Assembly (NCBI GenBank): GCA_045545455.1
Contig: JAZQAY010000120.1
Location: 1,195 to 65,194, forward strand
Origin: Anaerovoracaceae bacterium
Lineage (GTDB): Bacteria > Bacillota > Clostridia > Peptostreptococcales > Anaerovoracaceae
DNA: 64,000 bases
Direction: 5' to 3'
A program made the translations under genes and the position numbers. The notes under the pieces were generated by a model, which was not told the DNA's origin, ran no database searches, and saw only the letters and a list, made by a program, of their open reading frames with translations. Below, piece after piece: positions 18,515 through 20,002 of the stretch; the stretch's first letter is position 1; every line of letters begins with the position of its first letter.

Positions 18515-20002
18515 TTATCTCTTGGACGCTTTGAACTTAGCAAGCTCTTCAGCTTCTCTCTCGCCCTCTTCAACGATGTTGTGGATAGCTCTCTGGATAT
18601 CCTCAGGAAGGGGTTCGGGATGATAATTCTCTAAGATATCGATGGCTTTGGCATGGGCAGCTTCCGTCATGGTCATTGAACCCTTCTTCTCCCAGGTCTC
18701 TCTCTGCGTACGGTCGATATACCTGGTGGTGGAAAGTTCTTTTCTCATGTACTTCAGAGTATGTCTTGTAGCCAGATAGTTGTTGGCAGGACCTACCTCC
18801 TTGATAACGTCCAGTGCCAGTGTATCTTTGTTGACGGGGATACCGTATTCGAGTCTCCTTGACATCCTTGAGATCTCCGCGTCACAAAGCAACTGCTCAT
18901 AGCTCATTGTCATACCCATTTCCATCATTCCCATTCCGTAGATCAGGTTGGAGCCTGCAAGTGCGGGAACGACGTTTGTGATGGTCTTTTCATGTCCTAA
19001 CTGGACATCGAAACATTTGCTGTCCGCCTACGTGCCGCCTACGTTAGTAGGTATTCCGTAATAGTGTCCGATCTGGCCTACCGCAGCTGAACACATGGCG
19101 TGCTCAGGAGCGCCTACCGGAGACTGTGCGGTCTTCATATCCATTATGGTAGTGGATGTACCGTAAAGGATGGGGTTTCCGGGATTCAGAATCTGGGATA
19201 AAGTGATTCCGGAAAGGATCTCAGCATTGGTGCATACCAGCGTTCCTGCCATCGTGGCGGGAGTGGTCGCTCCGCAGAGTCCCATGGAAAGGATGTCGAT
19301 GGGAAGTCCGTACTTGGCTGAAAGCCTTATGATGGATGTCTCATTCTCATTCACTTCCAGAGGGCTGTTGGGGCAGGCACCCATGGTGATGATGGGTCTT
19401 TCTCTCAGCTTATCATATCCGCCCTGGATAAGGGCAGCCATGTCGATGAATCTCTGTGTGTTTTTGATACCTTCAAGGTCGTGAGCGAAGTTCTTGGTAA
19501 GGTTGTTGAGAACTACCTCAGCTTCGTGAAGGGATCTTACCTTCTGGTTTACGTCTCCTGCTGTAACTGCTATGGAGAAGCAGTTGATCTCAGGGATGGC
19601 GTCTACGAATCTTGCTACGTTTCCGAGGTCTTCCTTGGTGGATTCTCTCAGTTCTCCGGTATAGGGGTCAAAGATGAATACGCCTGTTCCGAAGTTCTTG
19701 TAGCATACTTTCTTACCTCCGAGAACGGTATCGTTCTTGGGATCTCTTCCGCAAAGCGTGATCTCTGCGGGAGTGGACTCGATGGCATCATTAACAAGGC
19801 CCTTGGGGAACCTTACTCTGTCATTTTCATAATCAACTTCACAGCCTGCGCCTTCTAATATTTCAAGCGCTTCCTTGCCGTGCATCTGTACGCCGAAGTC
19901 ATGCATGAGATCCAGAGTCGCTTCATGGATGGCATCGAGATCCTCATTGGTCAGAACATGATAACCGAGCATGTCGGTATCGTAAGTAAACTTCTTGCTC
20001 AT
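18515..20002 (-). CDS. mttB: trimethylamine:corrinoid methyltransferase MttB, Pyl-containing (in-frame UAG)
   Basis: Track ORFs 19028..20011 and 18515..18934 are in one frame. Between them lie TAG plus 31 sense codons ([31 protein letters not shown]). The joined product is 495 aa from the ATG at 20002 (AGGAG SD). Confidence 0.9.
19028..19030 (-). other. in-frame amber (UAG) codon of mttB, predicted pyrrolysine
   Basis: Plus-strand cta = minus-strand TAG in the context ...IPTNVGGT-[UAG]-ADSK... Confidence 0.85.

Follow-up and report, generated by a model that had tools for sequence, protein, structure and literature searches.

The window analysed here, a stretch of 64,000 nucleotides (64 kb), very probably carries on its minus strand, at 18515–20002, a single mttB gene encoding a 495-residue pyrrolysine (Pyl)-dependent trimethylamine:corrinoid methyltransferase of an Anaerovoracaceae-type (Clostridia) bacterium. 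The frame opens with an ATG at 20002–20000, with a Shine-Dalgarno-like AGGAGAG just 5' of it, and runs for 324 sense codons to a TAG at 19030–19028 (codon 325). After this TAG, 31 sense codons lead in frame into an open reading frame (ORF) of 139 amino acids (ATG at 18934) that terminates at a TAA (18517–18515). Counting the TAG, the only stop that interrupts it, the frame has 495 codons. An earlier note on this DNA had proposed that mttB was one 495-codon gene with an in-frame UAG, joined by 31 open codons to the 139-residue ORF; its coordinates and counts were correct, and our reading of the minus strand agreed with it. It had also equated the length with that of Methanosarcina MttB, and the M. 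barkeri enzyme does have 495 residues, the numbering differing in that the Pyl codon is 325 in the window gene and 334 in M. barkeri.

18515..20002, minus strand: mttB, predicted trimethylamine:corrinoid methyltransferase gene with one in-frame UAG (Pyl) at codon 325 (translation, homology, model score, active-site residues)
19028..19030, minus strand: in-frame TAG, proposed pyrrolysine codon (aligned with Pyl334, designated X, of PDB entry 7xcl; found in 71 of 71 loci)

The homology of the joined protein extended across the TAG. The best PDB match obtained with phmmer was M. barkeri MttB (7xcl/7xcm/7xcn; E 1e-104, 39% identity), with residues 15–482 of the window protein aligned with residues 19–490 of 7xcl. 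In this alignment, codon 325 occupied the same column as X334, which answers the question of positional equivalence raised in the earlier note. MttB proteins belong to the TIM-barrel family PF06253, and with X placed at the UAG the joined protein scored 626.7 bits on the NCBIfam Pyl-MttB equivalog TIGR02369 (cutoff 525), covering profile positions 4–469 of 469. As an internal control, a non-Pyl paralog encoded in the same window scored 358.8 bits, failing the cutoff. A sense codon at the Pyl column is a trait of the non-pyrrolysine MttB superfamily; the window mttB has TAG there. In M. barkeri MttB, the Pyl and corrinoid environment includes Gly110-Thr111 (a cis peptide), Tyr364, Met249 and Gly372, the Y364F substitution decreases Vmax from 48 to 1.7 per min (about 28-fold), and Glu225 is the salt-bridge partner of MttC (PMC9842639). 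The corresponding window residues, Gly105-Thr106, Tyr355, Met240, Gly363 and Glu216, are identical. Tyr355 falls in the 31-codon linker ahead of the 139-residue ORF, so no gene model that respects the stop would translate it.

We scanned all six frames for TAG-split ORFs, defined as TAA/TGA-delimited frames of at least 150 codons containing a TAG. Only two long genes with a single TAG and long open flanks were found in the 64 kb: mttB and the dimethylamine methyltransferase gene mtbB. The remaining candidates, in the window and in the 71 loci described below, were rejected as neighbouring genes that happen to lie in frame across a TAG stop.

The TAG and the codons downstream from it were conserved among relatives. 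Scanning a single representative genome for each GTDB species yielded 70 loci, which together with one metagenome contig made 71. Their record labels were nearly all Anaerovoracaceae, Eubacteriales Family XIII or other Clostridia, the cultured taxa among them being Emergencia timonensis, Ihubacter, Senimuribacter, Sinanaerobacter and Anaerovorax. The loci closest to the window (L001–L004, 98–99% identical) were metagenome-assembled genomes (MAGs) from rumen and abomasum. TAG was present at the homologous mttB codon in all 71 orthologous loci, whereas the two codons preceding it varied synonymously (GGC/GGA/GGT/GGG and ACG/ACT/ACA), indicating that the TAG is not a chance event. The distance from the TAG to the next stop was 160–201 in-frame codons in 69 of the 71 loci, the two short exceptions being L065, which stops after 48 codons, and L031, a contig that ends after 44. 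The matched stretch downstream of the TAG was 60–98% identical to that of the window in 69 of 71 loci, and in the 100-nt alignment starting at the TAG variation was mostly at third codon positions. Nonsynonymous divergence (dN) downstream of the TAG was 0.13–0.34, and the proportion of synonymous differences (pS) was saturated, at 0.72–0.93; synonymous sites were saturated against most relatives, and only dN and pS are given, with no dS. The segment of mttB downstream of the TAG is conserved and under purifying selection in frame, which argues against the possibility, raised in the earlier note, that this segment is not translated.

Database records present the gene differently. The nearest entries for the relatives were mostly fragments of 322–324 amino acids ending at the TAG, and a few full-length public MttB proteins (P0001–P0003) had Gln at the Pyl column. 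The latter were considered as sense-codon variants and rejected: the DNA behind one of them (L071) has TAG at 2315–2317, and the proteins are calls made under a code in which TAG is Gln. These Gln-at-Pyl entries, from short contigs, are a database artefact that becomes relevant in any screen for “non-Pyl” variants.

A complete bacterial pyl cassette lies 2–9 kb downstream of mttB on the same strand, in the order pylC-pylSc-pylD-pylT-pylSn-pylB, and is followed by a gene for a membrane protein:

13413..14534, minus strand: pylC (TIGR03909, 342.9 bits, cutoff 248.3)
12604..13449, minus strand: pylSc, catalytic subunit of the split bacterial pyrrolysyl-tRNA synthetase (PylRS), ending in TAG (TIGR02367, 259.4 bits, cutoff 178.15)
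11757..12590, minus strand: pylD (TIGR03911, 166.4 bits, cutoff 150.05; Pfam PylD_N)
11677..11750, minus strand: pylT, tRNA-Pyl with anticodon CUA (ARAGORN; sequence)
11298..11618, minus strand: pylSn, small tRNA-binding subunit of PylRS, ending in TAG (TIGR03912, 121.2 bits, cutoff 51.15)
10308..11288, minus strand: pylB, radical SAM methylornithine synthase (TIGR03910, 444.9 bits, cutoff 348.2)
9327..10298, minus strand: LysO-family (lysine exporter-like) membrane protein, last gene of the pyl-side unit (Pfam Lys_export)

All five Pyl proteins (PylB, PylC, PylD, PylSc and PylSn) scored above their NCBIfam equivalog cutoffs, and tRNA-Pyl(CUA) was the only tRNA that ARAGORN found in the 64 kb. 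The cluster holds every gene required to make (pylB, pylC, pylD), charge (pylSc, pylSn) and decode (tRNA-Pyl CUA) pyrrolysine. The earlier note had made no use of this adjoining cassette with its tRNA-Pyl, which strengthens the case. The split of PylRS into PylSn and PylSc is the bacterial arrangement (PMC3941956), in keeping with the assignment of the window to a bacterium in the earlier note; this assignment was also upheld by IF-3, LexA, an L20 leader, AraC regulators and the Clostridia labels of the relatives, with ribosomal protein L20 and a sigma-54 activator as additional bacterial marks. An archaeal origin was rejected, since the marker genes are bacterial, PylS is split and every matching locus has a bacterial record title.

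Four other accounts of the interrupted frame were weighed. According to one, a nonsense mutation inactivated mttB and the 170 codons downstream are decaying remnants of a pseudogene, as might appear from standard gene callers, which end the ORF at the TAG, and from the truncation of most database entries for relatives. The probability of this account is vanishingly small: the TAG is invariant in about 70 species and falls exactly on the catalytic Pyl column, the downstream codons are under purifying selection and, in all but two loci, 60–98% identical to those of the window, and an early stop occurs in L065 only, so that a pseudogene is effectively refuted. The in-frame, ATG-initiated ORF of 139 residues would fit a split enzyme, in which an N-terminal polypeptide of 324 residues would associate with a C-terminal one translated from its own start (ATG 18934), the UAG never being read through. 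This arrangement is extremely improbable, as the 31-codon linker varies like a protein-coding sequence and includes Asp327, Lys329, a His-Glu-Lys motif and Tyr355 (Tyr364 of M. barkeri), no Shine-Dalgarno-like sequence precedes ATG 18934, and the catalytic Pyl would be absent. Given the invariant TAG and the conserved and selected codons that follow it, neither a pseudogene nor an assembly error nor a restart at ATG 18934 is tenable. It is also very unlikely that the UAG is read as a standard amino acid by a near-cognate or other suppressor tRNA, with the enzyme acting as a non-Pyl member of the MttB family on a quaternary amine. Non-Pyl homologs, in which this column holds Met, Ser, Val or Trp, do exist, one of them in the window, and Pyl at the UAG is a prediction from the sequence rather than a proteomic result; nevertheless, both in the window and in relatives mttB is physically linked to a full pyl cassette that includes tRNA-Pyl(CUA), and the gene passes the Pyl-specific equivalog. 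The non-Pyl paralog does not pass it and has neither the Gly-Thr nor the Tyr partner of Pyl.

The fourth account accepts Pyl insertion, but has it aided by a PYLIS-type mRNA structure just downstream of the UAG, as proposed for archaeal mtmB. Two Rfam matches, each beginning at a UAG and each above its gathering score, speak for it: PYLIS_2 on the 100 nt from the mtbB UAG (42.1 bits) and PYLIS_3 at mttB, which starts exactly at the UAG and covers model positions 1–100 of 100:

18931..19030, minus strand: match to Rfam PYLIS_3 (RF02510), 100 nt from the UAG, judged to be coding homology (73.3 bits, gathering score 38)

The folding energies of the two 100-nt regions were ordinary (z-scores of −1.0 for mttB and −0.3 for mtbB), RNAalifold gave no consensus pairs in 55 orthologs, and many pairs in the PYLIS_2 alignment were non-canonical. 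For the eight pairs of the Rfam PYLIS structure, 65.8% of the cells were paired, versus a mean of 66.3% after shuffling, and covariation (0.164) was not in excess of that in the shuffles (0.165). In view of this lack of structural signal in folding, RNAalifold and pair counts, a PYLIS-like RNA element was rejected, its role in recoding is distinctly unlikely, and the matches are explained by homologous, conserved coding sequence. Pyl insertion does not strictly depend on a motif or on a special elongation factor, and in methanogens that use Pyl the meaning of UAG is ambiguous (PMC12626013). Since the PYLIS matches reflect coding homology and not RNA structure, the mttB UAG is most likely decoded by simple suppression with Pyl-tRNA, with no mRNA element. 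TAG is still the terminal stop in 6 of the approximately 54 real genes of the window (about 11%), another stop following 2–22 codons later in each, and the limit on read-through is for this reason probably set by regulated expression of the ramA-pyl genes. We infer that read-through is probably controlled by the level of Pyl-tRNA, as set by this separate unit.

Both PylRS subunit genes end in TAG, with a TAA 2 and 8 codons later. Among relatives, TAG was the terminal stop in 8 of 25 pylSc and 6 of 18 pylSn genes, versus 3 of 64 mttC and 6 of 68 mttB genes (counts that ignore kinship). These endings may be due to chance or shared ancestry, or they may form a feedback loop, PylS being extended when Pyl-tRNA is plentiful.

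The mttB gene is part of a compact methylamine cluster, the other members of which are as follows:

20036..20701, minus strand: mttC, cognate corrinoid protein, probable ATG at 20683, with a DVHDIG cobalt-ligand motif (Pfam B12-binding and B12-binding_2; TIGR02370, 222.6 bits, cutoff 215.3)
17075..18481, minus strand: mtbB, 468-codon dimethylamine:corrinoid methyltransferase gene with TAG at 17425–17423 (codon 353) (Pfam Dimeth_Pyl; TIGR02368)
16978..17030, minus strand: terminator-like hairpin followed by TTTGTTTTT, directly 3' of mtbB (inverted repeat I3, folding)
14535..16811, minus strand: RamA/RACo-type corrinoid reductive activase (Pfam RACo_C_ter and Raco_middle)
21057..22421, plus strand: URO-D-family methyltransferase 2 (MtaA/MtbA-like) with a C-terminal extension, transcribed divergently (Pfam URO-D)
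22421..23338, plus strand: CobW/G3E-family GTPase, metallochaperone-like (Pfam cobW and CobW_C)

In the direction of transcription of the minus strand, the order is mttC, mttB, mtbB, the hairpin with its T-run, the RACo/RamA activase gene, the pyl genes and the LysO-family gene. Both a cognate corrinoid protein (mttC, above the TIGR02370 cutoff) and a reductive activase (the RACo/RamA gene downstream) are thus found near mttB. The presence of a Pyl-type mtbB beside mttB had been claimed before: mtbB does lie directly downstream and has its own TAG, and the joined MtbB passed the equivalog TIGR02368 (PF09505 family) with 439.6 bits (cutoff 369.1). Its two halves matched profile positions 4–354 and 357–464, with the UAG at the gap between them. 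The mtbB TAG was kept in all 59 loci carrying this gene, and the core mttC-mttB(TAG)-mtbB(TAG) was present in 59 loci; together with ramA, methyltransferase 2 and the pyl genes, it recurs across the family. The absence of mtmB from the window was confirmed, with no member of the family and no further TAG-split ORF found; likewise, no MtmB-family protein or third TAG-split ORF was detected in the examined flanks of the 71 loci.

Several features of the cluster varied among relatives. Methyltransferase 2 is linked to the cluster in most of them and the CobW-like GTPase in several. Most relatives (L007–L070) have a second corrinoid gene after mtbB, about 48% identical to MttC and presumably mtbC, whereas in the window and L001–L005 no second corrinoid gene is present and mtbB is followed directly by ramA. 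In the window lineage, methyltransferase 2 lies upstream of mttC in divergent orientation, and the position of pylB has shifted to behind pylSn. The hairpin 3' of mtbB was conserved in L001, L003 and L004; a consensus terminator scan did not list it. It probably separates an mttC-mttB-mtbB unit from a ramA-pyl unit. The LysO-family gene also follows the pyl genes in L001 and L003 (after pylB) and in L004 (in which pylB had no match), and on the basis of this synteny its product may be linked to lysine or pyrrolysine supply.

By analogy with the characterised archaeal system and with Pyl-using bacteria, a Pyl-dependent MttB in this setting would work in the following way. At the UAG, release factor 1 would face competition from Pyl-tRNA(CUA), and no dedicated mRNA element would be involved. 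The full-length MttB would bind trimethylamine (TMA) on the pyrroline ring, methylate Co(I)-MttC and release dimethylamine (DMA), which Pyl-MtbB would demethylate to monomethylamine (MMA). The URO-D-family protein, presumed to be the methyltransferase acting between methyl-corrinoid and acceptor, would hand the methyl group on, probably to tetrahydrofolate, and the RamA-like protein would re-reduce oxidised corrinoid. Read-through would be limited by the regulated ramA-pyl unit, set off from mttC-mttB-mtbB by the terminator-like hairpin.

Some points weigh against this picture. Translation past the UAG and Pyl incorporation are predicted from the sequence, and the substrate specificity and methyl acceptor are putative, assigned by homology only. 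The RamA-like protein scored below the cutoffs of the NCBIfam AcsV and RamA models, and methyltransferase 2 reached 148 bits on the MtaA/CmuA subfamily model, below the cutoff of 235. The window lineage has no mtbC-like gene of the kind that follows mtbB in most relatives; after this loss, MttC alone may serve both Pyl enzymes in the rumen lineage of the window. Finally, Emergencia timonensis, which has the same cluster (L015), is a net producer of TMA from gamma-butyrobetaine, which would suggest that the system is not always active.

The window MttB and its partners closely resemble M. barkeri MttB/MttC (7xcl/7xcm/7xcn), in protein length, end-to-end alignment, the UAG column, the Gly-Thr, Met, Tyr and Gly residues and the Glu that contacts MttC, and in having an adjacent corrinoid protein with a DxHxxG motif. 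They differ in the level of identity between the MttB proteins (39%) and in the bacterial host, with PylRS split into PylSn and PylSc; coenzyme M is also unlikely to be the methyl acceptor in a non-methanogen. The non-Pyl MttB superfamily shares the TIM-barrel family PF06253 (the glycine betaine methyltransferase MtgB, PDB 2qne/4yyc, for instance, and the window paralog at 39117–40616), but its members (MtgB/MtcB/MtpB type) have a sense codon at the Pyl column, for Met in the window paralog.

Pyl-MttB has been known in bacteria since Desulfitobacterium. The coexistence of Pyl-dependent TMA and DMA methyltransferase genes in one bacterium, claimed for the window in the earlier note, was borne out, although such bacteria have been known since 2007, when the delta-1 symbiont of Olavius algarvensis was described with Pyl-MttB and Pyl-MtbB and no Pyl-MtmB (Zhang & Gladyshev, PMC1976440). 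This symbiont shares with the window both Pyl enzymes, pylT, pylSn, pylSc, pylBCD and the lack of Pyl-MtmB, but is a marine deltaproteobacterium with six MtbB and two MttB proteins, whereas the window, from Clostridia, has one copy each of mttB and mtbB in a single compact cluster. The Pyl-MttB of Bilophila wadsworthia, which occurs without mtbB, was analysed in 2020 (Kivenson & Giovannoni, PMC7593587). It too is from a gut bacterium with a UAG-containing mttB, mttC, ramA and pylTSBCD, and its gene was also misannotated as truncated; unlike the window bacterium, B. wadsworthia is a deltaproteobacterium with no dimethylamine methyltransferase gene, in which the pathway is linked to cutC, whereas the window has a Pyl-mtbB and a nearby glycyl radical enzyme that is not CutC. 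The nearest precedent is the Pyl-mttB of human-gut Emergencia and a novel Anaerovoracaceae genus, catalogued in 2023 (MAGICdb, Borton et al., PMC10653893). The gene and family are the same, and the Emergencia locus L015 (86% and 79% identical in the N- and C-terminal parts, respectively) has the same TAG and the same mttC-mttB-mtbB order. By comparison with this catalogued set, the window is closest to the rumen and abomasum MAGs, lacks the second corrinoid gene, has a divergent methyltransferase 2 and has the pyl order pylC-Sc-D-T-Sn-B. Three points extend this earlier work without adding a new principle, and in the literature searched we found no paper on any of them: the rumen lineage itself, an mttB-mtbB-pyl cassette spread across the family, and the lost second corrinoid gene.

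The contribution made here is therefore a correctly joined gene and a documented cluster, correcting a systematically split annotation, rather than a new mechanism. It raises an ecological question, that of TMA and DMA demethylation by rumen and gut bacteria. Lineages with the cassette include those of rumen, abomasum and human gut, and we tentatively propose, with more doubt than confidence, that mttC-mttB(UAG)-mtbB(UAG)-ramA-pyl is a conserved trait of the family, with about 70 species representatives, that could constitute a substantial non-methanogenic TMA sink if expressed. In that case, the bacteria would strip two methyl groups from TMA and release MMA, as competitors of methylotrophic methanogens for TMA and DMA. 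TMA is the precursor of trimethylamine N-oxide (TMAO) in humans, and TMA and DMA in the rumen feed methylotrophic methanogens; a family-wide bacterial Pyl pathway consequently bears on both TMAO biology and methane mitigation. As standard gene callers cut mttB at the UAG, leaving mostly fragments of 322–324 residues and a few entries with a spurious Gln, the capacity of bacteria for TMA and DMA demethylation is under-counted in rumen and gut metagenomes.

Divergence from L001 was uneven along the cluster. Synonymous differences between this locus and the window made up a proportion of 0.19–0.26 in mttC, mttB and mtbB, falling to 0.00 over the last 115 codons of mtbB, and 0.45–0.65 in ramA and the pyl genes. 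The low values in mttC-mttB-mtbB suggest either that these methyltransferase genes are highly expressed and strongly codon-biased or that a tract has recombined recently.

The spacer between mtbB and ramA (16812–17074) contains a palindromic element of 133 nt at 16833–16965, between the mtbB hairpin and ramA. Its 23-nt arms are 96% complementary, with a nested 11-nt repeat, and folding of the entire 263-nt spacer gave a z-score of −7.5. L001 and L003, although near-identical to the window, lack the element at this position, L004 has a longer related one there, and neither the window nor the 71 loci contained another copy. It looks like a mobile insertion of the miniature inverted-repeat transposable element (MITE) type.

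A glycyl radical enzyme (797 amino acids) and its activase adjoin the methylamine cluster at 24807–28493, and the enzyme is kept beside the cluster in L002–L004 and L069. We considered whether it might be a choline TMA-lyase, which would make the locus both TMA-producing and TMA-consuming, and rejected this identity, the CutC equivalog giving 537 bits against a cutoff of 1050. Its best PDB matches were of the B12-independent glycerol and diol dehydratase types.

A second methyltransferase system, of the non-pyrrolysine type, occupies 33474–40616. It comprises the uninterrupted MttB-family paralog (39117–40616, 499 amino acids, 28% identical to MttB, with Met at the Pyl column and without the Gly-Thr and Tyr partners), a corrinoid protein (35353–36024), two NhaC-family transporters (33474–35006 and 37532–38995) and an AraC-type regulator (36154–37431), and it probably demethylates a quaternary amine. 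Similar paralogs with Met at this column were found near the Pyl cluster in L012, L015, L017 and L019–L021.

Beyond the LysO-family gene, an L20 leader (Rfam RF00558, 67.5 bits) was identified at 8294–8416, upstream of infC (8343–7744) and rplT (7434–7078); it is an ordinary bacterial autoregulatory leader.

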